Notes under the pieces: model-generated
The model's input: only the letters and a program-made list of their open reading frames with translations
What the model was told of the DNA's origin: nothing
Databases searched by the model: none
Shown here: piece after piece, positions 2,925 to 48,200 of the stretch
Layout: each line of letters starts with the position of its first letter
How positions within the stretch are numbered: the stretch's first letter is position 1
Made by a program: the position numbers and the translations under genes
Source of the DNA: a virus
Taxonomy: Duplodnaviria; Caudoviricetes
IMG/VR virus record: IMGVR_UViG_3300035670_000280
Location: 1 to 53,324 of that record
Length of the DNA: 53,324 nt
Strand: one strand, 5' to 3'

Positions 2925-3185
2925 CTAAGTTCCACCAAGACTTAGCGGCCTAGACATAACGCACACGTGCCTGTCGCGGTAGTAACTTACCCAGTCGGCA
3001 CGGCAGAGGTCAGCAAGGGATTTTGTGGGGAAGCTGTATTCGGACCAAGGTTGCGTGGGGGTGGCGGGGTATTGGATTTTGAAGTGGAAGCCGGATGAGG
3101 AGGGGCGGACGCGGGTGATGATGGCGCAGCCTGGGTTAAGGGCGACGGCGGCGGCGGAACTGCAACGTGGAGGCGTGAGACTCAT
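2925..3185 (-). CDS. Hypothetical protein
   Basis: Likely start MSLTPPR at 3185, just after the upstream stop. Confidence 0.5.
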   Translation of the reverse strand: MSLTPPRCSSAAAVALNPGCAIITRVRPSSSGFHFKIQYPATPTQPWSEYSFPTKSLADLCRADWVSYYRDRHVCVMSRPLSLGGT

Positions 3186-3193
3186 GAGACTCA
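3176..3193. promoter_or_regulatory. TGAGACTCATGAGACTCA site; exact reverse complement at 3739-3756
   Basis: 18-bp sequence made of two TGAGnCTCA palindromes; regulatory role is inferred. Confidence 0.45.
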
Positions 3194-3373
3194 GTTTGCG
3201 GAGACAGGGCCGCTTAGCCACTCGATGGCAGACCAGTTAGCTAGGAAGGCTGCAGCGGCTTCCTGTTTAGCTTCGGTGAAGCTGACAGCGTGGATGCAGT
3301 GGACTGTGTTGGTTGCTTTAATTTGAAACCAGTAGCGCTGAAGTGAAGCAACAGGCGGATTAGATGCTGACAT
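3191..3373 (-). CDS. Small hypothetical protein
   Basis: 60-aa ORF in a run of minus-strand genes. Confidence 0.6.
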   Translation of the reverse strand: MSASNPPVASLQRYWFQIKATNTVHCIHAVSFTEAKQEAAAAFLANWSAIEWLSGPVSAN

Positions 3374-3387
3374 AGGTAAGGGGCAGC

Positions 3388-3522
3388 TTAGCGCTTAGCG
3401 GGGCGGACGAGGGGTTGGGTGCCGCTATGAGTTGGCTGAGACTGCAGGCCGAGGTCGCTTACGAGGACGGCGAAGAAGCTGGATGTAAGCAGGGTGCAGA
3501 AGATGTTGGTGAGGGTTTGCAT
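3388..3522 (-). CDS. Small putative membrane protein (44 aa, MQTLTNIFCTLL...PTHSGTQ)
   Basis: Hand-translated; hydrophobic N-terminus; fills the gap. Confidence 0.55.
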   Translation of the reverse strand: MQTLTNIFCTLLTSSFFAVLVSDLGLQSQPTHSGTQPLVRPAKR

Positions 3523-3529
3523 GGGTGAT

Positions 3530-3748
3530 TTAGAGGTGAATGTCGAGGCTTACCAGGTAGCGGTGTTGTTTGGTGGAGTAGCTGGAGATGTCGAGGGAGG
3601 ATACGTTTACGGCATTGATGCGCAAGGACGTGGAATCGCTGAAAGCTTCGAGCAGCTGCTCAATGTCGGAGGCGAGCTGGAATTTGGCGGCGCGTAGATC
3701 GTCGAGGTCCATAAGGGGTAGGGTAAGCGGACTGGGGATGAGTCTCAT
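3530..3748 (-). CDS. Small hypothetical protein (start may be 3712)
   Basis: ORF MDLDDLRAAK...LDIHL. Confidence 0.55.
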   Translation of the reverse strand: MRLIPSPLTLPLMDLDDLRAAKFQLASDIEQLLEAFSDSTSLRINAVNVSSLDISSYSTKQHRYLVSLDIHL

Positions 3749-3809
3749 GAGTCTCAGCCCCTAGGTGGCCACGCAACTTGATGGCGTGGCAGCTTAGCAG
3801 CGCCGCAGC

Positions 3810-4571
3810 CTAGGGCTTCAAACTTATGGCCCAGCGGGGGGCACGGGAATTGGAGCCGAGGTCTTGTTGTCTGGCGAGGGAGTTGAGTTTGACGGTTAGG
3901 CCGTCGCAGGGGAAGGGGAGCGTGTCGCGGCTGAGGCAGAAGGCGGCGAAGGTGGTGAGTACGTCGTCGGGGGTCTCGCAGAGGAGGCCATCAAGGACGG
4001 CGAAGCCGGCGCACTTGAGCCACTGCAGAGCGTCGAGCTGAGTGGCGATGGAGTCCACACCGCTTAGCTCGAAGGCGAGCATGGTGAGTTTGAGGGGGTC
4101 GTGCAGACCTTTGCGGCGCAGGGCGGCGGCGCAGGCGTTACGGGTGGGGTGCTTGGTGGTGTCGTCCGGTTGGAGCTGGGCGAGGGCCATGGCCTCGCAT
4201 CGGATTTCGATGCGACCCGAGCTTACGCCGGGGAGGTCGAGGATGATGCCGGAGCGCAGGGCGGCGTCGGTGCAGTCGCGCCCGCTGCGCAGGTGGGCGT
4301 GGCTGAAGCGTCCGTCGAGGTAGACAAGGTTGACGCTCACGCCGTCTGCTTTGAGCTGGATGGCGTAGGGGCCGGGGTTGCTATCGAGCCAGTCGGTGGG
4401 GTCTGGGGGGCAGTCGAGGCTGAGCAGTGTGGTGAGTGGGGGCAGGGCGTTAGGGGCTAAGCGGGTGAGGGCGTCGAAGGCTTTGTCGGACATAAGGGGT
4501 AGGCCTGCGCGGTAGGCGGCGTCGGCTAGGCGGATAAGGGGTGTAAGCATTGGTGCTAAGGGATGTGACAC
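3810..4571 (-). CDS. ligA: Stand-alone NAD+-dependent DNA ligase adenylation domain (no OB, Zn-finger, HhH or BRCT domain)
   Basis: Ia-like YRAGLPLMSDKAFD, motif I KADG, EIRCE, TRNACAAALR, DGLTVK, terminal APRWAISLKP. Confidence 0.85.
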   Translation of the reverse strand: MSHPLAPMLTPLIRLADAAYRAGLPLMSDKAFDALTRLAPNALPPLTTLLSLDCPPDPTDWLDSNPGPYAIQLKADGVSVNLVYLDGRFSHAHLRSGRDCTDAALRSGIILDLPGVSSGRIEIRCEAMALAQLQPDDTTKHPTRNACAAALRRKGLHDPLKLTMLAFELSGVDSIATQLDALQWLKCAGFAVLDGLLCETPDDVLTTFAAFCLSRDTLPFPCDGLTVKLNSLARQQDLGSNSRAPRWAISLKP

Positions 4572-4658
4572 GGTGCAGTGTAGCAGGTTGCTTAAGCGGG
4601 GGTGTAAGGGGTGTAAGAAAAATTTGCGTAAGGCTAGGTGGTGTGATTGCTACGCAGC

Positions 4659-5351
4659 TTAGCGTAGCGCTTTGGCCAGTTCTTCGCCTAGCAGCTTAGG
4701 GAGGCGTTGTTGGGCGAGGCGCTGGCTGATGCCGTAGAAGTCGAAGGGAGTGCTGACCTGTGGGGGGCGGTCGAGCAGGGCGAATAGGAGGTAGGCGGAG
4801 CGGCCACGGCGCTTGTAGATGCCTGGGGATAGGAGGCCGCCTGGGGAGCCGTTGGGGAGGGCAAAGATGTTAGAACCCTTGGTTTGCAGGCCCCTTAGGG
4901 TTTCTTGGTATTGGCTAGGGAGCATGTTGCCGTAGCTGTTGCGGCGAACCTCGCGGCCCTGGGCGTAGGCGACAGGGAATTTGTTGGTGATGCCCGCTTT
5001 GCTTAGGCCTCTGCCGAAGCGGGTGGTATAGGCGGTGTTATCGGCGCTACCGCGATCAGCAGGGTAGATGTAGGAGGCGGGGGAGTTGCCCTTAGAGCCT
5101 TCGGGATTGATAAATAGGCGTAAAGCTAGGCTGCTGTTCTCTTCAATAATGTTTCTATCATAACGTGGTGAACTAAGCGTAAAGCTTACGGGGTTCTCAA
5201 AGCGGCCTGCCATCTGGAGGCCCAGGTGCTGTTGGGCCTCAAAACCGAAGCGCTGCAAGGACCGCTTAGCGGCGTATTTGATCTGTGTGCCTTCTAGCGC
5301 GTTCAGCCTACGGAAGATGCGCTCAACGTCGAATTCGATTGTGCGAGCCAT
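4659..5351 (-). CDS. Putative tail-completion/neck protein (lambda gpZ / HK97 gp10-like)
   Basis: Basic helical protein with ends typical of the family (FDFYG...ELAKALR); no gpZ-like gene seen in the morphogenesis cluster. Confidence 0.5.
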   Translation of the reverse strand: MARTIEFDVERIFRRLNALEGTQIKYAAKRSLQRFGFEAQQHLGLQMAGRFENPVSFTLSSPRYDRNIIEENSSLALRLFINPEGSKGNSPASYIYPADRGSADNTAYTTRFGRGLSKAGITNKFPVAYAQGREVRRNSYGNMLPSQYQETLRGLQTKGSNIFALPNGSPGGLLSPGIYKRRGRSAYLLFALLDRPPQVSTPFDFYGISQRLAQQRLPKLLGEELAKALR

Positions 5352-5387
5352 AAGCTGCGCTGCCGCGAGGCCCTGGGTACCTAGAGG

Positions 5388-5564
5388 CTAGGAGGCGTGA
5401 GTGTCAAGGGCGGGGGCTAGGGCGTAGCAGGTGCCATCACTGTTGCGTAAGGAGGCGACGTGGGTGTAGCCGGTGTCCCGAGTGAGCCAGCGGAGACACA
5501 CTGCGCGATTGGGGCATTGGTCATCGTGACAGCGGCAGATGTCGTTGAGGAGGCGAGGAGTCAT
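5388..5564 (-). CDS. Small Cys-rich protein (58 aa, DICRC...CPNRAVCLRW)
   Basis: Hand-translated; ATGA overlap with the exonuclease stop. Confidence 0.65.
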   Translation of the reverse strand: MTPRLLNDICRCHDDQCPNRAVCLRWLTRDTGYTHVASLRNSDGTCYALAPALDTHAS

Positions 5565-6430
5565 GGAGTAGTAGGTGCGGTAAGGGTTTGGTGCAGCGCG
5601 TCGAAATACTTGTTGCAGCGCTCTAGGTAACGCGATTCGGCACCGCGTACCTCCAACGCGCTTAGTTCGCGCACGTCCGGCTTACCGGCGCGGCGTGCTA
5701 CGACAATTAGGCCGCCGATTGCTTGAATGCCGGTGAGGTGGCGTAGGCCGAGGCTGTATGCGCCGATTTGATCGGTGTAATCGGTAAGGAGTTCTTCGGA
5801 ACGTTTGTTGAAGGATGTTTTCCAGTCTGCTACGAAGGGTCCCTTGCCTCTGTAGTCGATAAGAGCGTCGCAGGTTCCGGCGAAGCCTGCAGGATGATGC
5901 ACGCTAAACTCAATGGCGTGGATTGCGGTTACGTTTTCGCTTATCCAGCCGAGTAAGCCGCGTCGGTAACCAGATGCGCTAAGTCCGACTTTGGGGACGC
6001 TTGGAAGCACTTGGGTAAGCGCCCACTTAGTGAGTGGAGCGGGGGCGCGGCCTAGGCCGTCAGGTTTGACGTACCAGGAGTTGCGCTTCTTAGCGGTTGA
6101 GTCGGCCATGCGCTTGGCGGTGCGCAGCAGGTACTCGGCGCAGTTGTGTGTGAGGGTGCCGCGCTGTGCTGCGGTGTCGCGTTCTTGGGCGGCACGTTCT
6201 TCGCCTAGGCGGGCGGCCCATGCCTCTATCACAGCTTTGCTAAGGCTCGTATCTTTAAGGATGCGCGTAACGCTATGGTAAATTTCGCCCTGCTTATCGT
6301 GGTAGATGCGGCCACCCGGATCGCTTACATCGTCGCGCTCCAGCTGCCACTTGGCGAGGTGCTGCAGTGCTTCCTGCGGGTCTGTAAGGGGCACTGCATA
6401 ACGAATCAACTTATGTGAGTATAAGCACAA
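5561..6430 (-). CDS. PD-(D/E)XK exonuclease (start probably GTG at 6394)
   Basis: SVTRIL, RGTLTH, FAGTCDAL, DWKTS, QIGAY motifs. Confidence 0.85.
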   Translation of the reverse strand: MCLYSHKLIRYAVPLTDPQEALQHLAKWQLERDDVSDPGGRIYHDKQGEIYHSVTRILKDTSLSKAVIEAWAARLGEERAAQERDTAAQRGTLTHNCAEYLLRTAKRMADSTAKKRNSWYVKPDGLGRAPAPLTKWALTQVLPSVPKVGLSASGYRRGLLGWISENVTAIHAIEFSVHHPAGFAGTCDALIDYRGKGPFVADWKTSFNKRSEELLTDYTDQIGAYSLGLRHLTGIQAIGGLIVVARRAGKPDVRELSALEVRGAESRYLERCNKYFDALHQTLTAPTTP

Positions 6431-6462
6431 AAAAGGGATAAGTGCAATAAAGCACTTACCCC
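6429..6462 (-). terminator. Rho-independent terminator downstream of the SSB-like gene
   Basis: Stem GGGGTAAGTGC/GCACTTATCCC followed by a T run on the minus strand; TATACT (-10-like) follows at 6418-6423. Confidence 0.7.
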
Positions 6463-6551
6463 CTAAGCGTACTTCATGCCTAGGAAAACCTAGGCTGTAA
6501 ATCTGAGCGCTAAGCGGTTTGTATTGAAACGCCTACCTAGCGCTTAGGGGC

Positions 6552-7133
6552 TCAGTTGGTGTCGGCCTTGAAGGGGTCGCCGCCTTCGAGGAGGCGGTTG
6601 ATGTCGAAGCCGGCGGAGCGGGATTCCTCCCAGGCTTCGGCAATGGCCTTGTCGGCGCCCTTTTTGCGGGGGACGGGGGTGAGCTTGTATTCGGTGTTGA
6701 GGCCGCTGCCCTCCTTACCGAGCAGGAAGTCGATGGCCAGGATGTCGGAGTAGTCCTCCATCTGACTTACCGCGTCGAGTTCGCGGATGATCGACTTTTG
6801 GCTGAGCTGCAGGACTTGGACCTGGGCCGCCTCGAAGTTGTAGACGGGGAGGGCGAGGCAGAACTTGGTGGGTTCGACGCTGGTGCCCTCGCGGTTCATG
6901 CGGCGCTTGTAGTCACCGAATGCCAGCGCGATCTCGTCGGGGCTGGGCTCGGAGTCAAAGCGGAAGGGTTTGGCCTTGCCGTCGGGGCCTTCGCCCCAGC
7001 ACTCGTAGAACTCAAGGGGTTCTTCGGTGAGCAGGCAGAAGCGGACAGAGGAGCCGGCAGCGATTTTGCCGGGGTTCAGGTAGGCGCCACCGCCAGCGAC
7101 GGCGGCTTGAGCGTTCTTGGAAAGGAGTCCCAT
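6552..7133 (-). CDS. Putative single-stranded DNA-binding/annealing protein
   Basis: GGGAYLNPGKI N-terminus, acidic GGDPF C-terminus; lies between exonuclease and primase. Confidence 0.55.
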   Translation of the reverse strand: MGLLSKNAQAAVAGGGAYLNPGKIAAGSSVRFCLLTEEPLEFYECWGEGPDGKAKPFRFDSEPSPDEIALAFGDYKRRMNREGTSVEPTKFCLALPVYNFEAAQVQVLQLSQKSIIRELDAVSQMEDYSDILAIDFLLGKEGSGLNTEYKLTPVPRKKGADKAIAEAWEESRSAGFDINRLLEGGDPFKADTN

Positions 7134-7208
7134 AGGTGGTTGTGGGGTGTGGGTGCAGATGGCGGTGCCTTAGTGGCGGTGCCTGAGCGAGGTGCTGGCT
7201 GCCTAAGA

Positions 7209-7237
7209 AGCGTAGGCGAGCAAGGGGGAGCGGTCAA
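7209..7237 (-). promoter_or_regulatory. Sigma70-type promoter TTGACC-N17-TACGCT
   Basis: Near-consensus hexamers at 17-bp spacing upstream of 7133. Confidence 0.6.
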
Positions 7238-7299
7238 TAGGCAGCGCAAACCTTGGGGTTGGACTTACGTGACACGTTTTGAGACTTAGGGGCAGAAGC

Positions 7300-7584
7300 G
7301 TGAACCCGTGACTAACCCGTGAGTGGGGTTTTCACGGGTTTGGCGAACACAAGAACCTAGGCAGGAGAAGGGGTTTAGAGAGAAAAGAGAGTAAACCCGT
7401 GAACCCGTGAAGGTTTTTCCCGTAGCTCATCTGTCAGTCTCATCAGTCTCCCGCTCACCTGTCGATTTTTTTCCTTCCTACCCGTTCACGCGTCGCGGGT
7501 TCACGGGTTGCCTCACTCCCCTTGCGCTGCAGTCGATTTGCCTACTCACGGGTTGCCCTACCGACCCGTGACTTTTCACGGGTT
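7300..7584. promoter_or_regulatory. Putative replication origin with AACCCGTGA iterons in both orientations
   Basis: About 9 copies of (A)ACCCGTGA/TCACGGGTT around a purine-rich tract, downstream of the primase-helicase. Confidence 0.6.
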
Positions 7585-7603
7585 GACAGCGCCGCTTTTT
7601 TGC

Positions 7604-7724
7604 TGCTAAGCTGCCGCGTGGCAGCTCGACACGAGCGCACGGGCTGACCTGCCAAACCGCCTGTCTCAGTTGAGACACATGAGACGGCCGCGATATGGCT
7701 GTGCTAAGCTGCCGCGTGGCAGCT
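7604..7724. repeat. 23-bp direct repeat TGCTAAGCTGCCGCGTGGCAGCT x2 (near-palindromic)
   Basis: Copies at 7604-7626 and 7702-7724; partial inverted copy at 3784-3799. Confidence 0.85.
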
Positions 7725-7762
7725 GAGCGACACCGCAGCCAAGCCACCACGCAACAAAGCCC

Positions 7763-7913
7763 CTTAGCTGCGTAAGTGCCAAGGGGCTTAGCTGCGTAAG
7801 TGCCAAGGGGCTTAGCTGCGTAAGTGCCAAGGGGCTTAGCTGCGTAGGTGCCAAGGGGCTTAGCTGCGTAAGTGCCAAGGGCTTAGCTGCGTAAGTGCCA
7901 AGGGGCTTAGCTG
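7763..7913. repeat. Tandem repeat, 24-bp unit CTTAGCTGCGTAAGTGCCAAGGGG x~6.3
   Basis: One substitution and one 1-bp deletion among the units. Confidence 0.97.
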
Positions 7914-7968
7914 TGTGGGGCGTGGCGGCCTAGCTGCATGGCGGCTTAGCCGCGTGGGGCGTAGCCGC

Positions 7969-10545
7969 CTAGCTGCTTACCCAGCGGATTTGGTCACGGC
8001 GCACGGCGTTCACCAAGCGGCCTACCCCGTAGTCGCTTACGAGGCGTTCGAGCATTCCGCGTGCCTCGGCGCCGTTCTTGGCCCACTTCTTGATCACGAG
8101 GTCGCGGTGGGTAACGACGCCAGTGCCATTGGTCTCGGCAAAGTTGACGATCTTGACGACCCAGTGCGGGAGATCGCCGCCGCCGACCTGGGGAGCGAGC
8201 ACGTCGAACTGGCAGATGAAGTAGCGACAGAGGATGACGGCGCGTTCCATCACGGCGCGGTCGATTACGTCGCCCATGGGTTCGCCGGGGGCTTCGGCGG
8301 CATAGTCGAGGGCGTGGAGGAGGCCGGCGGTGCGAGCGAGGTAGCCACGCATCTTGCCCAAGAAGGCTGCGCGACTGGCGTAGGTGGCATCGGCCTCGGC
8401 GCTCCACTCATCACACACCTCAGCAAACAAGCTCCACGCCTCAGCGCTGAGCCTTACGACCTTCCGCTTACCGATTGACGTATCCAACTCGTAAATAAGT
8501 TGCTCAAGTTCCCGCGTGATTTCCACTTCACTCAGGTTCTGCTTAGGGAAGACGTATTCGGGGACGATCCAGAGGAAGCGGGCCCAGAAGCCGTCGCCGG
8601 ACTTGGCGGTGGCGTCGTCGCCGTGGAGGAGTTCGGTGAGCTTGTCTTGTTGGATGGCGCCAAAGACGTTGACGGCGGTGCGGTCCACCATGATGGGATC
8701 GCAGCCTTTGCGGACGATGTTGACAGAGCCGCCGCTCCACATGCTTAACCAGTGGGCGCGGTCGGAGTTGTTGCTGCGGTATTTGTCCATGTCGCCTATG
8801 AAGGCAGCCAGCTCGTCGTGGAAGCTCACCACGCCGTGGACGGTTTCACGCTCAAGCAGGGTGCATAGGCCTTCGAGGGTTGCGTCCATCACTACGCGCT
8901 GGCGTGGCAGTTCGGGTGGTTCCTCGCGGTCCTCCTTAGGTAGTGCCTTGTAGCGCATCAGCTCACGCTTGTAGGCACGTTGGTCGTTGGCGTCGAGGGT
9001 GAGCAGAGGGCCTAGGAACTGGTTGGCAACAGGCGTTTTCAGCGATGAGGCGGGGGCGACGGTGCCCATCCAGAAGACGAGGGGCTCGCGCCACCCCTCC
9101 TTGATCTGCACACGAAACCGCTTTCCAATTACGGCGCACATTGTTGTGATAAAGGGCGCGATGAGCGCAGTGTGGGCTACGGGGAAGGCTTCAGCACGCC
9201 CACCGAGTAGCTCTGCAATGCGGGGGTGGAAAACGGATTTCAAGGTCAGATGCGCTGCGGCAGACTTAGACCACTGCTTGAAACTACTATGACGCAATTC
9301 CCGCAGGAGTTCATCATCCTCGCTGTTGCGCTGCTCCTTACGAATCTCCCGTAGTACAGGCCACGGCCTGGACCACCCGTTGAATTCGGCAGTGTCGAAG
9401 ACGTGGTAGATGCGCTTATACGCGGCGCCTTGTCGGTCTTGGCTGCTGCGGCGGATGGCATCTGCCTGCTCCTCTAGGTTCCAGTGCTCCGTAGACCAAT
9501 TAGCACTCTCCGCAATACTTACCGCCTGCTTAGCTCCGAATTCGTTGACTATTGCGGCGTAGATTGTGAAGGCGGTTCCATAGGTGTTGCTGCCGGGTTC
9601 TAGGCGCTGAGGGCAGTAGGTGAGGGCGGCTGTTACAGTGCGGACCTTTTCATCGTGAGTTAGGGCGCTGTAGTGGAGGCCGGCTGGGCGGTATTCGTTG
9701 TCGTAGGCCTCTTGGGCGGCGACGAAGGCGGCGTAGGCCGAGGCGTCGATGTCGCGCTCAGGTAAGGGGGAGGCGGTGCGCGGAGCTTCAGTGCGGGGGA
9801 GGGCCTTACCGACGTGGGCGCGTGCCGAAGCGCTGAGCAGACCGCTGCGCTGTTGAGCCCACTTAGGGGGTTGGGGTGTCGTGGTGCCGGGACTAAGTAG
9901 AGCGAGGAGCTGAGCTAGGGGAAAGCGCTCGCCTGTGGCGCTGATTACGCGGCTTAGTTCGCCGGTTTCGGGGTGGGTGCCCCCGGCGAGGCGCATGACA
10001 CGGGCAGGGTTGCAAAGCTTTTCGTCGAGCTGGACACCGGGAACAGTGGCTTTGACATGCGCGAAGAGGGCTTTCTGGCCTTGGCGGAACTCGATGCCGC
10101 TGCAGGGCGTTTCAAGGATCCAGTAGTTGTGGACCGACTTACCGCCTGTCCACACCTGCAGTGAGGGGTGGGGGAGGCCGGCGGTTTCCCATTGGCTGCG
10201 CTTGTGGTCGAGGTCAGTATCGGGATTGTCGTCCTCGTAGAAGAGGGCACGGCAGAAGGCGATCTCGGCGTTCTTGGTGCCGCCGTGGTTAGGGATGTAG
10301 CCAAAGCCGTAGCCGGGCAGAGCGGCCACGCGCCGTTCAATGGCCTCGCGGTTGAGGGCGCCGCTTACGTGGATGTGCTCGCAGGGCAGGCCCTCGCGGT
10401 TGTGCTTGGGCGGGAACAGGGCAAGCACAAAACCCTCATCAGCACTGATGCCCAGGTGGGTGAGCTGCTTTTCGGCTTGGGACCAATCCACCATGGGACG
10501 CTTAGGGGGTTCGCTCACCGTACTGGGAGTTGCCACGACTCGCAA
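7969..10545 (-). CDS. Primase-helicase (RepB-like primase N-terminus plus DUF3987/YfjI-like C-terminus)
   Basis: TGGKSVHNYW and NPARVMRLAG primase motifs; DATLEGL, FHDEL, GDGFWARFL in the C-terminal domain. Confidence 0.8.
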   Translation of the reverse strand: MRVVATPSTVSEPPKRPMVDWSQAEKQLTHLGISADEGFVLALFPPKHNREGLPCEHIHVSGALNREAIERRVAALPGYGFGYIPNHGGTKNAEIAFCRALFYEDDNPDTDLDHKRSQWETAGLPHPSLQVWTGGKSVHNYWILETPCSGIEFRQGQKALFAHVKATVPGVQLDEKLCNPARVMRLAGGTHPETGELSRVISATGERFPLAQLLALLSPGTTTPQPPKWAQQRSGLLSASARAHVGKALPRTEAPRTASPLPERDIDASAYAAFVAAQEAYDNEYRPAGLHYSALTHDEKVRTVTAALTYCPQRLEPGSNTYGTAFTIYAAIVNEFGAKQAVSIAESANWSTEHWNLEEQADAIRRSSQDRQGAAYKRIYHVFDTAEFNGWSRPWPVLREIRKEQRNSEDDELLRELRHSSFKQWSKSAAAHLTLKSVFHPRIAELLGGRAEAFPVAHTALIAPFITTMCAVIGKRFRVQIKEGWREPLVFWMGTVAPASSLKTPVANQFLGPLLTLDANDQRAYKRELMRYKALPKEDREEPPELPRQRVVMDATLEGLCTLLERETVHGVVSFHDELAAFIGDMDKYRSNNSDRAHWLSMWSGGSVNIVRKGCDPIMVDRTAVNVFGAIQQDKLTELLHGDDATAKSGDGFWARFLWIVPEYVFPKQNLSEVEITRELEQLIYELDTSIGKRKVVRLSAEAWSLFAEVCDEWSAEADATYASRAAFLGKMRGYLARTAGLLHALDYAAEAPGEPMGDVIDRAVMERAVILCRYFICQFDVLAPQVGGGDLPHWVVKIVNFAETNGTGVVTHRDLVIKKWAKNGAEARGMLERLVSDYGVGRLVNAVRRDQIRWVSS

Positions 10546-10796
10546 TGGGTTGTAGGGTAGGCCGGTAGCGATCTCACTTCAGAGTGTCCCCCGTCAAACG
10601 GACCCGAATCCAGGCTTACTTGGATCAGGAGCTTGCTGAGCTGGTAAGGCGACGCGCTGCGTCGAACGACAGGTCGGCAAGCAGGGAGATCACGAGACTC
10701 GTGCGTCTAGGTCTTGAGGCGGATAAGTCCGGGCCTTGGTCCGATGACCTAGACGACTAGGCTACTGCGTTCTAAGTAACTTCTTTTCTGCAATTC

Positions 10797-12647
10797 ATGG
10801 ACCTTTTGTTTGGTTTGGAGAATCTGTGTTGTCTAGATGCGGCGCAGATCATTGCATTTGATACAGAAACCACTGGCTTAGCACCGGTTTACGGTGGTTT
10901 GCGGCTTATGCAGATGACGGCAGAGGGGTGTCCTGTTGTCGTTGTTGATCTGTGGGAGCTGGATGAGCAGGGGCTGGACACGCTGCGGGAATGGTGTGCA
11001 GCTAAGCACCGTGTCTGGGTCGCGCATAATGCCACGTTTGATTTGGGCTGGTTACAGGAGCACCGGATTGATCTGGCGGGAGATGTGCATTGCACGATGC
11101 TTGCTTCACGGCTATGCACCAATGGCGAGATCAATCTGCGGCATGGCTTGGCCCCTGTCGCAGAGCGCTTGCTCAAGATTGAGTTGAGCAAGGAGCAGCA
11201 AGCATCTGATTGGTCTGCTGCGGTACTTAGCGCTGAGCAAATCACCTATGCCGCTAAGGATGTGGAGGTGCTGATGCAGCTCTATCCTCTGCTTATGCAA
11301 CGGCTGCAGAAAGGCGAGCTGCTTAAGGCTTATGCGATTGAGTGCGCCGCGCTGCGGCCTATTGCGCACATGCAGCGCACAGGGCTTCCGTTTAATAAGC
11401 AGAAATTGTTGGATCTGCAGGCTGATTATGAAAAGCAGATTGCTGAGCTGGGTGTGCAGTTTGTTGAAAAGCTAGATGCAGCATTGCCGGAAGGCGATAA
11501 GCTGCCGCGTGATGAGGATGGCAGCTTCAACCTACGGGCTAAGGCGGAAGGGTCGGTAAGGCTTGGTACCAAGCGCCTAGCGGGTTTCAACCTCAACTCA
11601 CCTAAGCAGTTGGTGGAGAAGTTCACGGTTTTGCTTGGTACTGCTCCCGTTGAGGAGAAGACAAATAGGCCTAGCGCTAGTACGGCTGCTCTGCGGTCCT
11701 ATGCTGCGGATCACGAGGTTATTCAGATTTATCTGGCGTGGAAGAAAGCGGAGAAGCGTAGGCAGATGGTGTGCGCTCTACTTGAGCATCAGCAGGAGGA
11801 TGGATTTATTCGTGCTGGGTATATGCAGCTGGGGGCAGATACAGGTCGCATGAGCTGTAGGAATCCGAACCTTCAGCAAGTGCCTCGGGATAAGGGGTTC
11901 AGGGCTGCTGCTGAAGCCCCAGAGGGGTGGAGCTTTGTGGTGTGTGATTTCGGGCAGATGGAACTCCGCCTAGCTGCAGCGATTAGCAAGGATCAGCGGA
12001 TGATTAAAGCGTTTCAGGATGGAGAGGATCTGCATACGATTACGGCTGCGGCTATTTATGGGCAGCCGGTTGAGGACACCGCAGAGATGAAGCAGCGTAG
12101 GCAGGTAGCTAAGTCTGCTAATTTTGGTCTTTTGTTTGGTTCTGGGGCTAAGGGGTTGCGTAATTATGCTGGTGCGATGGGAATTACTATGGATATTGAG
12201 GAAGCCGACCAGATCCGCAACACTTTCAGAGACACTTATGTAGGTATCACTAAGTGGCAGATGTGTAATGCGCGTGAGGCTGATGATACTCAGCATGACA
12301 GGTGGGCTCAGGTAAGAGTTCCGGTGAGTGGGATGCGGAGGTATTTGCCCGGTGATCTCAACCGGCTTACGACGCGGTGTAATACGCCGGTGCAAGGAGC
12401 AGGTGCAGCTGTGCTTAAGGTGGCGCTTGCGTCGCTGTGGAGAGAGCTGTGTGCTGCTGGTGAGGACACTGCACGCTTAGCTGCTGTGGTACATGATGAA
12501 GTGGTGCTACTTGTACGCGAAGGCTTAGAGGAAAAGTGGCTGCTTACATTGCAGCGGTGTATGGAGGACGCTGAGGCTATGTGGCTTGGCGATATTCCTG
12601 CGCTGGCGGAGGGCGCCTACGGGAAGACCTGGGCTGACGCAAAGTAG
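10797..12647 (+). CDS. polA: Family A DNA polymerase with 3'-5' exonuclease
   Basis: FDTET, HNATFD, YAAKD exonuclease motifs; motif A DFGQMELR, B KSANFGLLFG, C VHDE. Confidence 0.95.
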   Translation: MDLLFGLENLCCLDAAQIIAFDTETTGLAPVYGGLRLMQMTAEGCPVVVVDLWELDEQGLDTLREWCAAKHRVWVAHNATFDLGWLQEHRIDLAGDVHCTMLASRLCTNGEINLRHGLAPVAERLLKIELSKEQQASDWSAAVLSAEQITYAAKDVEVLMQLYPLLMQRLQKGELLKAYAIECAALRPIAHMQRTGLPFNKQKLLDLQADYEKQIAELGVQFVEKLDAALPEGDKLPRDEDGSFNLRAKAEGSVRLGTKRLAGFNLNSPKQLVEKFTVLLGTAPVEEKTNRPSASTAALRSYAADHEVIQIYLAWKKAEKRRQMVCALLEHQQEDGFIRAGYMQLGADTGRMSCRNPNLQQVPRDKGFRAAAEAPEGWSFVVCDFGQMELRLAAAISKDQRMIKAFQDGEDLHTITAAAIYGQPVEDTAEMKQRRQVAKSANFGLLFGSGAKGLRNYAGAMGITMDIEEADQIRNTFRDTYVGITKWQMCNAREADDTQHDRWAQVRVPVSGMRRYLPGDLNRLTTRCNTPVQGAGAAVLKVALASLWRELCAAGEDTARLAAVVHDEVVLLVREGLEEKWLLTLQRCMEDAEAMWLGDIPALAEGAYGKTWADAK

Positions 12648-15105: not shown

Positions 15106-15476
15106 CTGACCACACCATCACCCCACCGCCGGAGCTGGTACAGCAGTGGGCGCACGAGTGGAACACGCTCGGAATCCGGCACCCAGACGCCACGAACACG
15201 GCCTCGTACGTTGCCACACGCGCTTCCCAGTGGGGAGCCGACATGGAGCTGGCGGCCTGTTGCAGACAACTTACGGATCCCAAGTGGTACGACGAAATCA
15301 AGAACTTGCGTGGGCCTTTCCGCGCAGCAGAACTCCGCGCCGCCCGCCGCCCCAAGCCGCCGAGCTTGAACAGCATTGCGCTGCAGATGCTGGGGACGAT
15401 TGAGCGCGACGCGCACTACTTACCCGAGATCACCGACACCATACGCCGCGCACTTAACCAGCTTTCTGATAGCTAA
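15102..15476 (+). CDS. Hypothetical protein, paralog of 14733-15041
   Basis: Shared motif blocks. Confidence 0.75.
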   Translation: MTDHTITPPPELVQQWAHEWNTLGIRHPDATNTASYVATRASQWGADMELAACCRQLTDPKWYDEIKNLRGPFRAAELRAARRPKPPSLNSIALQMLGTIERDAHYLPEITDTIRRALNQLSDS

Positions 15477-15483
15477 CATTACT

Positions 15484-15951
15484 ATGGAATTGACACTACT
15501 AGAGGTCCACCGTTTTTGGTCAAAGGTTGATGTAGTGACAGCCGATATGTGCTGGCAGTGGACTGGCTACTGCCTTCCGTTTGGCCATGGCCAGGCTTGG
15601 CTACAGGGAAAAACTTTTTTATCCCACCGTGTCGCTTACTCCTTGGCACAAGGACAAGTGCCTTCAAAGCTGCATGTTCGCCACCTTTGCGACAACCCTT
15701 GCTGTTGCAATCCTGCTCATCTTGCGCTTGGATCAGATCAGGATAATTCAGACGATAAATGTCGACAAGGTAGGCAGGCCCGTGGCTCTGGCAATGGGCG
15801 GTCAAAGCTTTCCGATCAAGAGGTGCTATGTATCTATAAATCAAGCAAGACACAAGAGGAGCTTGCATCGGAATTTGGCATACACCAATCAATGGTGAGT
15901 CGCATTAAGAACGGTGTTTACTGGAATTGGCTAACTGGAGCAACTCGATGA
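15484..15951 (+). CDS. HNH endonuclease with C-terminal HTH (homing-type)
   Basis: RFWSKV..CWQW, HRVAY, VRHLCDNPCCCNPAHL..G..QDN; lower GC than its flanks. Confidence 0.9.
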   Translation: MELTLLEVHRFWSKVDVVTADMCWQWTGYCLPFGHGQAWLQGKTFLSHRVAYSLAQGQVPSKLHVRHLCDNPCCCNPAHLALGSDQDNSDDKCRQGRQARGSGNGRSKLSDQEVLCIYKSSKTQEELASEFGIHQSMVSRIKNGVYWNWLTGATR

Positions 15952-18057: not shown

Positions 18058-18705
18058 ATGACTACAGCGCGACTTATCTGGATTACACCAGATGCCGAAA
18101 ACATGATCACATATACCGCCCGCGTTTCTAATCCCAGAAATCAAGCCAATACGGACACAGCCCCTCGCCTACTTAGATATTGCCTAGAGCATGGACACGT
18201 ATCTATTTTTGAGATGGCGAACATGTGTATAGAGATCGAAACAACAAGGGCTATCTCCGCACAAATACTTAGACATAGATCTTTTTCTTTTCAGGAGTAT
18301 AGCCAAAGGTACGCCAGTACAGAAGCCCTAGGTGCTGCTAAAGTGCCAGAGCTGCGTAGACAGGACACCAAAAATAGGCAAAATTCGATTGACGATTTAA
18401 GCGATGAAGTTCATGAGATGTACACTAATAGAATTGAAAACCTTTTCGCGGAAGCCGAGCATCTGTATGAGTGTATGGTGCAGGATGGAGTTGCTAAAGA
18501 GTGTGCGCGTAATGTTCTGCCGCTAGCAACGCCTACACGGCTATACATGAACGGTACAATTAGGTCGTGGATCCATTATCTACAGGTCCGTACAAGCGCT
18601 GGAACACAGCTCGAACACAAAAACCTAGCGCTCCAGATTCAGCGCATCTTCACTGAGCGGCTGCCTACCATAGCTGAGGCGGCCTTCCCCTCGGCTGCAC
18701 CGTAG
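18058..18705 (+). CDS. thyX: Flavin-dependent thymidylate synthase
   Basis: GHVSIFE, QILRHRSFSFQEYSQRY signature, KECARNVLP. Confidence 0.97.
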   Translation: MTTARLIWITPDAENMITYTARVSNPRNQANTDTAPRLLRYCLEHGHVSIFEMANMCIEIETTRAISAQILRHRSFSFQEYSQRYASTEALGAAKVPELRRQDTKNRQNSIDDLSDEVHEMYTNRIENLFAEAEHLYECMVQDGVAKECARNVLPLATPTRLYMNGTIRSWIHYLQVRTSAGTQLEHKNLALQIQRIFTERLPTIAEAAFPSAAP

Positions 18706-19200: not shown

Positions 19201-19422
19201 ATGAAATGTCCTGATTGTGGATGCCACCGCGTTGAGGTGGTAGTCACTACTTACAGTACCGATGAGCAGATTGTACGGAGGCGTCACTGCTTTGCGTGCG
19301 ACGCCAGGTGGTACACTCTGCAGGCCCAGGAGGTACTGCTTGACAAAAAAGATTTCACGTGGATAGAGCGTGTAGGAGGCCGGAAAGCCGTAAAACTGCA
19401 CACCAACGAGACCCTCGCTTAG
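19201..19422 (+). CDS. NrdR-like N-terminal zinc-ribbon protein (no ATP cone)
   Basis: MKCPDCG...IVRRRHCFACDARWYT. Confidence 0.75.
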   Translation: MKCPDCGCHRVEVVVTTYSTDEQIVRRRHCFACDARWYTLQAQEVLLDKKDFTWIERVGGRKAVKLHTNETLA

Positions 19423-19433
19423 TTACCTATCCC

Positions 19434-20324
19434 ATGTCCTACTCTGTTGATTCTTTTAAGTCCTATCTAACTGAAATAGCAAGATACCCTCTGCTTACGG
19501 TCGAGCAGGAGATCCAACTTTCACGACAAGTCGAAGCAGGTAGGCAGCTCAGTGGTAAGGAGGAGCTGAGTTCGGCTGAGCGGCGTACTGCACGCACTGC
19601 TGAAAGGGCTAAGCATAAGCTCATTAATTGCAACTTACGCTTAGTGGTAAGTGTGGCCAAACAATACACACGCCGTCTTAATGGCAGCAGCATGGAGCTT
19701 ATGGACCTCATCCAAGAGGGGGCTTTAGGGCTGCATAGGGCTGTAGAGCTATTTGATGGAGCTAAAGGCTATAAGTTTTCTACCTATGCTTATTGGTGGA
19801 TAAAACAAGCAATTACACGCGGGATTGATACCAAGGAGCGGCTTATTCGCGTTCCGCAGCACGGATTAGATACTGTTTATAGGGTGGTTAGGTTCCAGAA
19901 AGATTACATGCAGAGGCATGGACGGATGCCTACGCTACAGGTAATGGCAGAGGAAAACGATGTTAATCCTGAGTATTTAGAAATGCTTATGTCGCGTAAT
20001 TCGTGGCACAGGAGCTTGGACGCATTGGCGGTTGAAGACGGTGCTCCGATTATGGATTTGATACCGGATATAAGCGGTCTAGATGCCCAACAGGATCTTT
20101 TAGAAAAAGAAGAAAAGCAGGTAATGCTCAGCCTAGCGCTTGACTGCTTAAATGAAGCAGAACTTGACATGATCACTAAGCGGTATGGGCTTAAGGGCAG
20201 TCCCCCGATGTCATTATCCGGGATTGCAGCGGAAGCTGGTATTACCCGCGAAAGTATCCGCCAGCGCTTACTGCAAGCACACACAAAAATGCGCTTAAAA
20301 CTTAACACTGCACGTTACGTTTGA
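19434..20324 (+). CDS. RNA polymerase sigma70 factor, RpoD/group-2-like
   Basis: YLTEIARYPLLT.EQE, NLRLVVSVAK, DLIQEG..GL.RAVE.FD..KGYKFSTYAYWWIKQAITR, TRESIRQ. Confidence 0.93.
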   Translation: MSYSVDSFKSYLTEIARYPLLTVEQEIQLSRQVEAGRQLSGKEELSSAERRTARTAERAKHKLINCNLRLVVSVAKQYTRRLNGSSMELMDLIQEGALGLHRAVELFDGAKGYKFSTYAYWWIKQAITRGIDTKERLIRVPQHGLDTVYRVVRFQKDYMQRHGRMPTLQVMAEENDVNPEYLEMLMSRNSWHRSLDALAVEDGAPIMDLIPDISGLDAQQDLLEKEEKQVMLSLALDCLNEAELDMITKRYGLKGSPPMSLSGIAAEAGITRESIRQRLLQAHTKMRLKLNTARYV

Positions 20325-20327
20325 ACC

Positions 20328-20894
20328 ATGACTAAACAGCTTATTGGTCTCTATTCCCCCGCTCCCCAGTGCGGCAAAACTACAGTCAGTAGAGTGTTGG
20401 AAGGGAAGGGTTTTGTGCGCGTGCCTTTTGCTGAGGCGCTGAAACTGATGCTGCATCCTCTGTTAATGGAGCTGGGCTACACTCCTGCAGAGGCTACACA
20501 TCTGCTCTATGTCGCCAAGGAAGAGCGCCTCAGCTGCCTAGATGTCACGTCACGCCATCTACTTCAGACCTTAGGGACGGAGTGGGGAAGGCAGTGTGTG
20601 CATCCAGATATGTGGTTGCGGGTATGGGAGGTACGTGCAAGACGCTACGAGAGGGTTGTTGTCGATGATGTGCGCTTTGTCAACGAGGCAGAGCTTGTCC
20701 GCAGCCTGGGCGGTGAGCTTTGGAGGATTGATAGGCCTGGTACTGTGAATACAAGCACGCACGCATCGGAAGGAGGCCTGGATGCGTGTGATTATTTCTC
20801 CCAGTATATTTGTAACGATGGATCGCTAGACCAGCTTACTAATGCCGTCACTTCGCTACCACTCTGGGAAGATGGTACTAATCCCTCAGGATGA
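20328..20894 (+). CDS. Deoxynucleoside monophosphate kinase
   Basis: P-loop PQCGKTT, FAEALK, RHLLQTLGTEWGR, DDVRFVNE, HASE. Confidence 0.9.
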   Translation: MTKQLIGLYSPAPQCGKTTVSRVLEGKGFVRVPFAEALKLMLHPLLMELGYTPAEATHLLYVAKEERLSCLDVTSRHLLQTLGTEWGRQCVHPDMWLRVWEVRARRYERVVVDDVRFVNEAELVRSLGGELWRIDRPGTVNTSTHASEGGLDACDYFSQYICNDGSLDQLTNAVTSLPLWEDGTNPSG

Positions 20895-45275: not shown

Positions 45276-48200
45276 TCAGGTGCCGTAGCAGAAGGCGCCA
45301 GGCTGCTTGACGGCGAAATCAACGTCCTGGAGGGCGATGATGCGCACCGTGCCAGCGGTGGAGCCGGCGTAGGGATCTACGGTAAGATCGAGGCCGGACC
45401 ACATGCCCACGATGAACTGGCTGAAGTCTCCGAACAGGGCGTCGTTGCTCTGCAGCTGGTTGCTCACGATCACGGGGTAGCCGTTGATCTGGTCGTCGGC
45501 GTAGACGAACTGAGCAGTCGAGGTGGTGGATTTCTCAGTGCTCTTCAGAGCGCCACGGGCGGCGGCGTTGATGATGTAGCGCAGGGCGCCTGCATCAGCG
45601 TTAGCGCTCGCCACATCGGTCTCCATGCCGATGTACTCGGCAAAAGTACCGTAGGTGGTGATGGTCTGGCTGCCGATGCCGGTGGTGTTCACCAGGCCCA
45701 GGGGCTGATTGGTGCTGCCGGTGCCGTAGATGGCTGCGCGGTCCAGTTCCAGGGCGATGACCTTGGCGAGGTCAGAGCGGATCATCGACTCCACGTCAAT
45801 GCTGGACTGGAGCAGCAGACGGCGGCTGTAGTCCACGAAGGCGCCCACGGTCTTAGGCGTCATGTTCACCTGGTCGATAGCCTGCTGGCTCTCGGTGGGC
45901 GAACCGGACTCACCGACCCAATAGGCGGTGGCGGCAGAGGTTTGGCGGGGGATGCTGACGTTGCCCTGGAGGCCACTCAGCATGGTCACGCCGGCCTGCA
46001 TCATCGCCATGCGATTGCGCAGCAGGTCGATGAAGCTGCCGCTCAGCAGATCGGTGGAGACGAGGTTGCCACCGGCGGTGGAGGTGCCCACCACGAGGTC
46101 GCGGCGCAGCACTTCGTTCGGGATGACGATACCGTTGGAGGAGCGCTCGTACTTGGCAGCGGCGGCCTTACCAACTTCGATCTCGAAAGCAGCGGCTTCG
46201 CGGGCAGCGCGGTCGCCAGGGTTGACGAGGTAGTTAAGGGCGCGGACGAAGGAGAAGCTACGGGTCTCCTTGTCGGTCAGACCGAGGGAGGTGGAGTTGT
46301 CGTCGTGGATGCGGCCTTGGATTTCCACGCGGGTACGTCCCAGTTGAGTCAGCACGGCTTCACGAGCTTGGTCGATGGTGGCGTCGTCGTTGATCAGGCG
46401 CTCAGCCAGATCAGCACCGACTTGGTGTTGGTCGCACATGGCGCGGATGGTCGCAACCCGCTCACGCTCGGACTGCCGAGCGGCGGCTTCGACCTCCTGA
46501 ACATTGATGGTTTGTTCCATGGATGGAGGAGTTTGGGTGGAGTCAGGTCCGCGCTCGGCGGTCTGCTTAGTTCCAAGTGTAGGGGTCGATGCTTGGATTG
46601 TCTTTTCTGTTGTAAGTGGTTGGGGATCTGGATTGGTTTCTTGATGTGAACGTCCTAGGCCCACGGTTTGGTCGGCAGGGACGCTCACGGAGGAGACCTC
46701 CAGAACGTTCCATTTGACGACTTGCATATCGCCATTTTGTGCTTCACGCACGTCGTTAATTTCGTAAGCAAAGGATACGTTGCGGACGATACCGGCTTCG
46801 ATGTCTTGACGGCGCTTGTATTCTTCGGTCCCTTTTTCGGTGGTATTTGGGCTCCATTTTGTTTTGACGTAGAGGCGGCGGTCGCTGCCGAGCCAAGCTT
46901 TCTCTGCTACACCGAGTACGACATCACGGTTGTGGTTCCAGAGCCAGGGGCCGCCATCGTTCATGCGGGCTAGATCCATTGCGCCGTCGTCGTGCATCAG
47001 CACTTCACGGCCCCACCAGCGTTCGACCGGAGCCTCAGAGCTGAAGCTGAAGGTGAGGCCGGCGTCGGTGGACTCTTCTACGCGGAGGCCCTGCGGTGCT
47101 TCGCGCCTAAGCACCTCTTTATTGATGGCTTTGATGTCGAGGCGGTCCTGCATGGCTTTGCCGGTGGCGGGCTCGAAGGAGACGGGCGTGAAGTCGTGAT
47201 CGCTTAGCCACTTCTTGGCTTCGGCGGGAGTGAAGCGGGCGGCGTCGAAGCGGAGAGCCTGGAGTTTGAGGGGGTTGTCGCCTTTGATGCCGTAGATGGA
47301 GTCGATGCCTTGGGCGAAGTCGTTGTTTTTGCGGCGGAAACGGTCGAACTGCGCGGGATCGAGGAGGCGAGCGGCGTGTTCGTTGGGGTAAGGGCGCTGC
47401 TCGGCGGTGCGGTCGTCCTCACTATCGCTGGATGGTGCCTTGAGGGCGTCGATTTTGCGCAGCGTTGAAAACTTATGGCCTACGAGAGTTTCGGTTTCGG
47501 CCCAACCGTCCTGCTTAGGGCGGTAGATGCGGATGAGGGCGGCGGGGTCATCAGAAGAGGCGTCGATGCTGAAATCGCTGCCCGGAACGCCGAGTGTGCC
47601 AGTGCGCATGATGTGTTCAATGCGGCCCCGGGCGGTTCCGCCGCTGGACTGCCATGCAACAAAATCACCTTCACTAAGTTCGCCGGCGGCGGCACGCACG
47701 GAACCAGCAGCGGCACGAACGGCGTCGGGATCAGCCAGGGCACGTCCGTCGGAGGAGGCGGAGGCTTCGGTGCTGAGCAGTTGCTCGGGAATGATCCAGA
47801 ATTTGCAGGCGCCTTCTGGGGCGATGTCACCAGAGACGACTTCACAAGCGCGGGGACCGGCGTAGAAGATGCAGTTGGAGCACTGCATTCCTTCGTTGGC
47901 GAAGGGGCTAGCAGGCATGTAGTGAGCGCCGTGAGCACCGATACCTTGATCAAACTGGCCAAGTTCATCGACGATTTCCTCTAGGGCTTCGTATAGGGCG
48001 ACCTGAGAAGCCGTGAGGTCCGGGGTCAGTTCGCGTGCTTCAGTGGGCCGGGCGCTCATATCTGTAGTGCCTGCTGTGTTGTGGAGTCTATCGGAAGCGT
48101 TTTTAATCGTTTTAGCCTTAGCGGTGGCCCAGGTCTGCCCGGGATCGCCGCCCCAAGCGGCCCAAGCGACGCGACCGGGGGATGGGTAGGCGGGGCTGTC

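Follow-up and report, generated by a model that had tools for sequence, protein, structure and literature searches.

A short homologue of LigA in a complete phage genome

The window analysed here is a stretch of 53,324 bases that makes up the entire IMG/VR virus record IMGVR_UViG_3300035670_000280 (CheckV completeness, 100%). Its leftward operon ends in a gene, designated LigNT here, that encodes a homologue of the NAD+-dependent DNA ligase LigA consisting of subdomain Ia and the nucleotidyltransferase (NTase) domain only; the gene directly upstream encodes a basic protein, designated X (Table 1). The open reading frame (ORF) of LigNT has a GTG start at position 4571, an in-frame ATG seven codons further in at 4550 and a TAG stop at 3810-3812. 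The ATG is the start implied by the 98%-identical, 246-aa protein cluster P0001.

The Pfam family PF01653 matched LigNT with an E-value of 2.3e-22 (80.2 bits; gathering cut-off, 27), aligning residues 69-252 with profile positions 44-249 of 253, and LigNT scored 79.5 bits in a six-frame search of the window with the same family. Two PHROG NAD-ligase families also matched, phrog_3869 (positions 94-304 of 656) and phrog_3359 (positions 7-247 of 325; E 1.7e-8). When LigNT was searched against PDB sequences, 27 of the 29 sequences found were LigA chains at E <= 3e-7, and all of the LigA alignments ended at LigNT residue 252. An AlphaFold model derived from 20 family members (mean predicted local distance difference test score [pLDDT], 87) had LigA adenylation domains as its best Foldseek matches (E 5e-18 to the NAD-bound LigA of M. 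tuberculosis); the fold matched the M. tuberculosis, E. coli and other LigA structures at E values of about 1e-17.

A preliminary description of this DNA had reported subdomain Ia and all the NTase motifs, including the KADG lysine. We found each of these in LigNT, with K74ADG as motif I, E126 as motif III, D223-G224 and K228 in motif IV and K252 in motif V, although subdomain Ia is shortened. LigNT thus shares with E. coli LigA (671 aa) the Ia and NTase fold, PF01653 and counterparts of the catalytic residues K115, D117, G118, R136, E173, D285 and K314. The roles of the adenylylated lysine, the KxDG motif and the ribose O2' ligand (E173), and the binding of nicotinamide mononucleotide (NMN) by subdomain 1a, are set out in passages of PMC5052709. 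The stretch ahead of motif I is about 40 residues shorter in LigNT than in E. coli LigA, the motif I lysine lying 41 residues closer to the N-terminus than K115, and Ia in the AlphaFold model is reduced to two helices (residues 6-21 and 29-38). LigNT Y20, D29, F32 and D33 align with E. coli Y22/H23, D32, Y35 and D36, and R21 replaces H23; we take E. coli Y22, H23, D32, Y35 and D36 to be NMN-contacting residues. Counterparts of D32, Y35 (Phe in LigNT) and D36 are therefore present, and the model indicates that subdomain Ia is present but abbreviated.

Absence of the other LigA modules

In E. coli LigA the OB fold spans residues 317-404, the Zn module 405-432, the HhH module 433-586 and the BRCT domain 587-671, as given in a passage of PMC4797296. 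LigNT, in contrast, ends one residue past the motif V lysine, and OB, HhH and BRCT are absent from the genome. No six-frame match at E <= 10 was obtained anywhere in the 53,324-base window for OB (PF03120), HhH_2 (PF12826), BRCT (PF00533) or the ATP-ligase domain PF01068; in the controls for these Pfam searches, 9 to 14 of 14 control genomes gave matches. A custom hidden Markov model (HMM) of the OB-Zn-HhH-BRCT region, which comprises everything C-terminal to motif V, was built from 74 full-length LigAs and run with filters off on stop-to-stop segments of at least 30 aa from the window and 25 related loci. It found nothing in the window at E <= 10, and among the related loci it matched only the positive control L023, the locus that has an OB-fused ligase (E 2.9e-23). 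LigNT is the sole ligase-like gene of the window genome.

PF03120 and PF12826 were likewise without a match in five complete relatives (51-58 kb, CheckV 100%, one with terminal repeats), so that 6 of 6 CheckV-100% genomes, the window included, are without OB and HhH_2. These records rule out an incomplete genome that conceals the rest of the ligase, and a frameshift or read-through into an OB domain is ruled out because no OB-like sequence occurs in any frame. The preliminary description had held that the ORF ends at the boundary before the OB fold and that the window contains no OB, HhH or BRCT sequence; the stop codon one residue past K252 and the empty Pfam six-frame and custom HMM searches bear out both statements, and with them its central claim of a stand-alone Ia and NTase homologue of LigA with no partner LigA domains in the window, which is a complete genome.

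Phylogeny and selection

Among 5.8 billion proteins, a word-indexed search found 77 LigNT homologues of 139-443 aa, 76 of which have PF01653 as their sole domain; the 73 closest (51-98% identity) are 235-282 aa in length. A scan of viral contigs identified 26 LigNT loci, one with its ORF cut by the contig end, and the identities of these relatives extend down to 25%. Among 25 complete related ORFs, 24 end 0-7 residues past the motif V lysine, the exception being that of L023, on a 252-kb contig, which runs 83 residues further into an OB fold. These end points, together with the lack of OB and HhH_2 in the six complete genomes, indicate that truncation is the native state of the protein.

In a maximum-likelihood tree of 131 rows, which was midpoint-rooted for drawing only, 45 NTase-only proteins (among them the window protein and those of all such loci) lie beyond one branch with a Shimodaira-Hasegawa-like approximate likelihood ratio (SH-aLRT) support of 95. 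On the other side of this branch are 75 full-length LigAs, a T5-like ligase subunit A, the OB-fused L023 and nine other short rows, some of which are taken to be fragments. Pairwise ratios of nonsynonymous to synonymous substitution (dN/dS; Nei-Gojobori) were 0.03-0.41 in 12 of 12 informative pairs of the family. The LigNT family is a single old clade under purifying selection. The comparisons of same-length homologues and of dN/dS that the preliminary description had proposed thus exclude both a recent truncation or pseudogene and neutral evolution, since relatives at 25-98% identity have the same length and all ratios are below 0.42.

The family is essentially uncultured. With the window LigNT as query, none of the 85 matching records in the INPHARED collection of cultured phages covers at least 80% of the query, a megablast search of window positions 3000-6500 against cultured phages gave no match, and a pattern scan of 185,579 species genomes gave a single match, at a contig end of a metagenome-assembled genome. 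With the family member L025 as query, INPHARED gave 295 matching records, of which 257 reach a coverage of 80% or more; of the 25 matches listed, almost all come from T5-like or Aeromonas phages and are annotated as DNA ligase or ligase subunit A. In metagenome records, LigNT-type genes carry the label 'DNA ligase (NAD+)'.

Conservation of LigA residues

To compare individual residues, 53 short and 74 full-length proteins were aligned with E. coli LigA (translated from NC_000913.3), whose numbering is used below; clade counts are restricted to 44 LigNT clade members. The positions aligned to K115, D117, G118, E173, D285 and K314 are unchanged in all 44, as is the glycine of motif IV (G286), and the Lys, Asp and Gly of motif I are also unchanged in 74/74 full-length LigAs. 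R136 is retained in 42/44 members, D32 in 43/44 and D36 in 40/44. Within subdomain Ia, Y20, R21, G23 and D29 (LigNT numbering) are unchanged in 20/20 diverse members, and D33 is unchanged in the family alignment. At the position of K290, 32 of the 44 members have Lys, five have Ser and five have Arg. At the position of E113, Gln is found in 39/44, and also in 10/74 canonical LigAs.

Some positions differ consistently from canonical LigA. E143, which aligns with R98 of LigNT, is Glu in 64 and Asp in 10 of the 74 full-length proteins but Arg or Lys in 41/44 clade members, and G137 and G139 of the RGDG loop, present in 74/74 full-length LigAs, are deleted in the LigNT clade. In the subclade that contains the window, R144, N145 and R152 (the counterparts of R200, N201 and R208 in E. 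coli) are retained in 12/12 members. The picture suggested by the alignment is that the residues for NAD+-dependent lysine adenylylation are strictly constrained and that the canonical DNA-binding surface is partly retained, more so in the window subclade.

Genomic setting of LigNT

The window phage is a lambda-like siphovirus with genes for the terminase subunits TerS and TerL, a head-tail joining protein, portal, tail terminator, tape measure, M/L/K/I/J-like tail-tip proteins and endolysin. LigNT closes the leftward operon as its last recognisable gene, the order being primase-helicase, SSB-like protein, PD-(D/E)XK exonuclease, 58-aa Cys-rich ORF, X and LigNT. The remaining stretch to the left end of the record, about 3.4 kb, is taken up by small ORFs and tandem repeats, and TerS is at the opposite, right end. 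A primase-helicase gene is found 3-6 kb upstream of LigNT in 13 of the 26 loci. At locus L022 (6200-7605) a divergent 246-aa LigNT with no X upstream overlaps the start of a PD-(D/E)XK nuclease gene directly downstream.

Table 1. Features of the LigNT locus, and X homologues in two cultured phages. Positions are those of the window unless another record is given.
Feature	Position	Strand	Evidence or annotation
LigNT	3810..4571	-	253-aa homologue of NAD+-dependent DNA ligase LigA with Ia and NTase only; ORF list
Motif V K252 and final residue P253, stop codon next	3813..3818	-	K252 codon 3816-3818; direct read
Motif IV D223-G224-L-T-V-K228 (aligns with E. coli D285, G286, K290)	3888..3905	-	Alignment
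Motif III glutamate E126 (aligns with E. coli E173)	4194..4196	-	Alignment
Motif I K74-A-D-G77 (adenylylated lysine)	4341..4352	-	Direct read of sequence
Shortened subdomain Ia, residues 6-38, with Y20, R21, D29, F32, D33	4458..4556	-	AlphaFold model secondary structure
X-LigNT spacer, 87 nt, with TACACT at 4577-4582	4572..4658	-	
X, 230-aa strongly basic protein, candidate trans-acting partner	4659..5351	-	phrog_1924 ('minor tail protein') E 3.3e-23, full length
PD-(D/E)XK exonuclease	5561..6430	-	phrog_298 E 9e-30; Pfam PDDEXK_1 E 4.7e-7
SSB-like protein	6552..7133	-	phrog_1607 E 2.5e-6
Primase-helicase, first gene of leftward operon	7969..10545	-	Pfam DUF3987 E 1.3e-47; PHROG DNA helicase
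Family A DNA polymerase (PolA)	10797..12647	+	Pfam DNA_pol_A E 2e-64, DNA_pol_A_exo1 (3'-5' exonuclease) E 1e-32; divergent
vB_Pae_U5 X homologue	L055 5914-6651 (PP003917.1)		Annotated 'minor tail protein'; between primase gene and TerS, directly upstream of TerS
S-CBS1 X homologue gp43	L054 5968-6654 (NC_016164.1)		Annotated 'minor tail protein'; end of circular record

The preliminary description had placed LigNT among terminal early genes rather than beside PolA and had taken this as a sign of a repurposed protein. This does not hold, as LigNT belongs to a replication and recombination operon 6.2 kb from PolA, and such neighbours point to DNA metabolism rather than to a role in NAD+ turnover or defence. 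In the ORFs to which family models were applied, no NAD+-salvage, NAD+-related or defence-related gene was recognised, although no search was aimed at such genes. The same description had drawn attention to a TACACT hexamer 5 nt upstream of the GTG; the hexamer is there. Chance alone would give 18.4 copies in the window and 12 are present, so that it is under-represented, and no sigma-70-like promoter was predicted in window positions 3000-5600. Given that it is neither enriched nor accompanied by a predicted promoter, the hexamer carries no weight, and we dismissed it as a promoter element. The lack of host-type promoter matches near LigNT fits the presence of a phage-encoded sigma-70 family factor (19359-20324, + strand), in which Pfam recognises regions 1.2, 2, 3 and 4.

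Linkage and properties of X

X is directly upstream of LigNT in 24 of the 26 loci, the exceptions being L022 and the OB-fused L023, and the linkage extends to AT-rich marine contigs whose LigNT is 25-29% identical to that of the window. A search anchored on X found 23 loci, eight of them on new contigs, with LigNT directly downstream in 21 of the 22 that could be evaluated; one further locus ends 92 nt after X and is not evaluable, and the viral contig L050 has X without LigNT. The two genes overlap by 4 nt at one extreme and lie about 175 nt apart at the other; the exception is L004, where a 124-aa ORF (9564-9938) is inserted between X and LigNT. This ORF has two CxxC pairs and by eye is NrdR-type zinc ribbon-like. 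X is strongly basic in 20/20 members, with isoelectric points (pI) of 9.8-10.5 and net charges of +11 to +33; the median pI of LigNT is 7.0, and that of the window copy is 5.9.

X belongs to no Pfam family: a scan of 20 members gave four single-member matches at chance level, the best (E 0.05) being to ERF. A profile of 20 X sequences had no match in the PDB at E <= 10, and a Foldseek search of the PDB with the AlphaFold model of X (pLDDT 84) gave nothing below E 0.05. The idea that X is an OB or HhH analogue recognisable by sequence is thus not upheld by the PDB profile search, the Pfam scan or Foldseek. The best VIA-align row for the model (Z 7.2, root-mean-square deviation 3.7, 103 residues) was to the 109-residue chain 9mu2_P of the SaPI1 neck structure, at a level that is common without true relatives. 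In the BFVD, three significant matches to unnamed proteins were followed by weak rows for HK97 gp10 family or tail component proteins (E 0.03-0.1, template modelling score about 0.3), and a protein-language-model search gave neighbouring Atlas clusters bearing DUF6441 or Minor_tail_Z. The Pfam families DUF6441, Minor_tail_Z and HK97-gp10_like had no match in the window at E <= 10 and none among the 20 X members scanned. X may resemble the HK97 gp10/lambda gpZ-like tail-completion proteins at the level of the fold (the Z 7.2 row), and PHROG and GenBank label it 'minor tail protein'; however, it is about twice the size of the 109-residue neck chain that it matched, and its gene lies between replication genes and terminase, outside the head-tail joining block. 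With the window X protein as query, no match was found among the cultured phages of INPHARED.

Possible function of LigNT

An active adenylyltransferase that acts on nucleic acid is the most economical reading of the invariant chemistry, the selection and the replication and recombination setting. Our preferred interpretation, which we put forward tentatively and at somewhat less than even confidence, is that LigNT is the active core of an NAD+-dependent adenylyltransferase or ligase whose nucleic-acid binding is provided in trans, possibly by X, and that this siphovirus lineage retains it among its genes for DNA replication and recombination. Enzymatic activity, a nucleic-acid substrate and a physical partnership with X are what the sequences lead us to infer. 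In such an enzyme, the shortened Ia subdomain would position the NMN moiety of NAD+, K74 would attack the adenylate phosphate to form LigNT-AMP, and the AMP would be handed to the 5'-phosphate of a nucleic-acid end, which would then be sealed. LigA holds DNA in a clamp to which the NTase domain contributes along with the OB, Zn, HhH and BRCT modules. Since these four modules are missing and the window copy of LigNT is slightly acidic, binding of the substrate would have to come in trans; the linkage and charge of X make it the obvious candidate, and the pair would in effect be a two-protein ligase.

Two-polypeptide phage LigAs provide a precedent for such an arrangement, albeit one that differs in kind. 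In the T5-like phage vB_EcoS_AKFV33, genes annotated as ligase subunits A (323 aa) and B (256 aa) adjoin, so that in the T5 type, as is proposed for LigNT, LigA functions are spread over more than one polypeptide. Aligned with a member of the LigNT family, the T5-like subunit A is 29% identical over 91% of that protein, but it extends about 79 residues past motif V, whereas LigNT has no such tail. From lengths, position and annotation, we read this tail as an OB fold and subunit B as the probable carrier of the HhH module. The custom C-terminal HMM detected no subunit-B-like gene in the window, within +/-10 kb of 24 LigNT loci or at the 23 X-anchored loci, and the T5-like subunit A branches among full-length LigAs, outside the 45-row LigNT clade. 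A T5-like split ligase is ruled out for LigNT by the lack of a tail past motif V, the lack of a B subunit gene and the separate branching. The PDB entries 9hu3 and 9i5i, released in 2026, are titled 'PR1 phage heterodimeric DNA ligase in complex with 21-mer nicked DNA' and are known by title only; a literature search for a heterodimeric phage ligase found no paper describing the PR1 ligase.

Two other kinds of short LigA resemble LigNT. The laboratory fragments of LigA in PDB entries 1b04, 1tae, 1zau and 3pn1 (305-336 aa) have nearly the same C-terminal boundary, their alignments reaching LigNT residue 252, and by their entry titles they bind NAD+, AMP or NMN; they are, however, engineered and have a full-size Ia, whereas LigNT is a natural gene under selection. 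Isolated LigA adenylation fragments reportedly self-adenylylate but cannot seal nicks (work attributed to Timson and Wigley, to Sriskanda and Shuman, and to Wilkinson et al.). The 'minimal' Ia-NTase-OB LigAs of L023 (368 aa) and P0076 (415 aa) are, like LigNT, without the C-terminal modules, but unlike LigNT they keep the OB fold (by the custom HMM, and by PF03120 in P0076), and that of L023 falls outside the LigNT clade. The L023 ligase (9803-10909, on the 252-kb viral contig) has 1.8 kb upstream an ORF (7202-7996) whose weak match to the LigA C-terminal HMM (E 0.16) is HhH-like, and the two may form another split ligase of the T5 type.

Several observations weigh against the pairing of LigNT with X and against a LigA-like mode of nick binding; we have kept our confidence below even because X occurs independently of LigNT, its fold is possibly structural, the LigA arginines are relaxed and the two proteins are not found fused. 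We take R200, R208, R218, R277 and R308 to be DNA contacts in E. coli LigA, from its structure and from the alanine scans of the Shuman laboratory. R200 is Arg in 74/74 full-length LigAs but Gln in 31/32 clade members outside the window subclade. Arg at R218 occurs in 53/74 full-length proteins versus at most 7 of the 53 short rows, and it is not among the commonest residues of the clade there; at R277 the counts are 73/74 versus 10/44 clade members, and at R308 54/74 versus 25/44. If these arginines have the roles that we assume, canonical nick binding would not be conserved in the LigNT clade. The change of E143 to Arg or Lys and the deletion of the RGDG loop, which suggest relaxed constraint, count on the same side.

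The evidence on X raises doubts of its own. X appears to have neither an OB nor an HhH fold, and its model weakly resembles HK97-gp10/lambda-Z-like neck proteins; it may be a virion protein or another protein unrelated to ligation. Homologues of X without LigNT occur in the cultured Pseudomonas phage vB_Pae_U5 (HMM E 1e-25) and in gp43 of the Synechococcus phage S-CBS1 (HMM E 9e-21; Table 1). These homologues imply that X has a function of its own and that LigNT is an addition beside X in one lineage, and the two genes could be adjacent because their order was inherited and not because their products are partners. A search of proteins of 456-2000 aa for an X-LigNT fusion found none, which is weak evidence. 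X might be a displaced neck or tail-completion protein. In vB_Pae_U5 there are just three small genes between the capsid and major tail genes.

A bolder form of the two-protein proposal is that LigNT and X constitute an NAD+-dependent joining enzyme of a new kind, in which a neck-protein-like, DNA-end-binding subunit replaces the OB-Zn-HhH-BRCT clamp; we regard this as unlikely, though worth stating. As the X genes of the cultured relatives lie beside terminase and at a genome end, the pair may act on the ends of the phage genome and not on replication nicks; it may seal or AMP-cap cohesive ends, either once the DNA has been injected or ahead of packaging.

Competing interpretations differ mainly in what receives the AMP. 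LigNT could be an active NAD+-dependent AMP-transferase with an acceptor other than a DNA nick, such as a protein side chain (possibly of X), a DNA or RNA 5'-phosphate end that is capped, or NMN or another small molecule in a reverse reaction; this is the repurposed domain that the preliminary description had envisaged. The invariance of the adenylylation residues alongside relaxed or replaced R200, R218, R277 and E143 positions is what this interpretation would lead one to expect, as are the absence of the DNA-clamp domains from all six complete genomes, the acidity of the window protein and the reported failure of self-adenylylating LigA fragments to seal nicks. We nevertheless consider this main rival rather unlikely: the genes conserved beside LigNT serve DNA replication and recombination, the retention of R144, N145 and R152 throughout the window subclade fits a nucleic-acid substrate, and no result points to another acceptor. 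A self-sufficient minimal ligase, in which Ia and NTase alone seal a phage-specific substrate (such as cohesive ends that have annealed, or nicks that the replisome holds) and basic substitutions offset the missing OB fold, is less probable again. Although the replacement of E143 by Arg or Lys adds positive charge to the NTase domain, and a passage of PMC4797296 names the NTase domain as the only one that every step of the LigA pathway requires, LigNT as a whole is near neutral or acidic and several conserved LigA arginines are lost.

We assign the lowest probability to a role in NAD+-linked host takeover, counter-defence or regulation, in which LigNT would bind, consume or sense NAD+ or NMN, or interfere with host LigA, without joining ends. 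The NMN- and AMP-binding residues are conserved, and phage NAD+ pathways are an active field, with NARP1-3 treated in passages of PMC13464706; according to the same passages, however, these pathways use unrelated enzymes. A sponge or sensor would not need an invariant catalytic Lys, Glu, Asp and Lys, and a protein without an AMP acceptor would be limited to a single turnover and therefore would not deplete NAD+. The operon context is one of replication, and the family-model scan of ORFs mentioned above, which was not a search aimed at such genes, turned up no NAD+-salvage or defence gene.

Relation to described ligases

A full-text literature search for phage LigA adenylation domains that stand alone or are truncated found no such family described; the search excluded supplements, and subscription journals lay mostly outside it. 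The available portions of a 2020 review of ligase scaffolds do not contain the terms 'stand-alone', 'subunit' or 'NTase domain only', and their passages on phages mention no such form. Viral ligases are described as infrequent and mostly confined to large genomes in the accessible part of a 2016 survey of viral replication genes. The NTase-only LigA architecture is real and conserved, and it appears not to have been described before.

Of LigA, a textbook example of a multidomain enzyme, the phage clade described here keeps only Ia and NTase, with the adenylylation residues intact. If LigNT is indeed a catalytic core served by a non-homologous DNA-binding partner, the pair would be a ligase of new architecture that might serve as a tool enzyme; alternatively, NAD+-dependent lysine adenylylation may have been recruited for a purpose other than nick sealing. 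The label 'DNA ligase (NAD+)' probably overstates what LigNT can do alone, which matters for annotation.

Other features of the window

The rightward (+) early block contains genes for an HNH endonuclease with a helix-turn-helix (15376-15951), the thymidylate synthase ThyX (18058-18705) and a dNMP kinase (20328-20894). A 1052-aa ORF at 45276-48434 (-) comprises a protease-like segment (residues about 474-707) and a major head protein (460-1052; phrog_617, E 3e-152), and looks like a protease-capsid fusion. Five perfect or near-perfect tandem-repeat arrays are present in the intergenic early region, at 1-99 (the record start; 25 nt x4), 198-255 (16 nt x3.6), 2524-2641 (23 nt x5.1), 2633-2696 (11 nt x5.8) and 7763-7913 (24 nt x6.3), the last just downstream of the primase-helicase gene. 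These arrays could be iterons, origin, packaging or regulatory sites, and the apparent ORF at 2324-2746 is probably repeat sequence read as protein.

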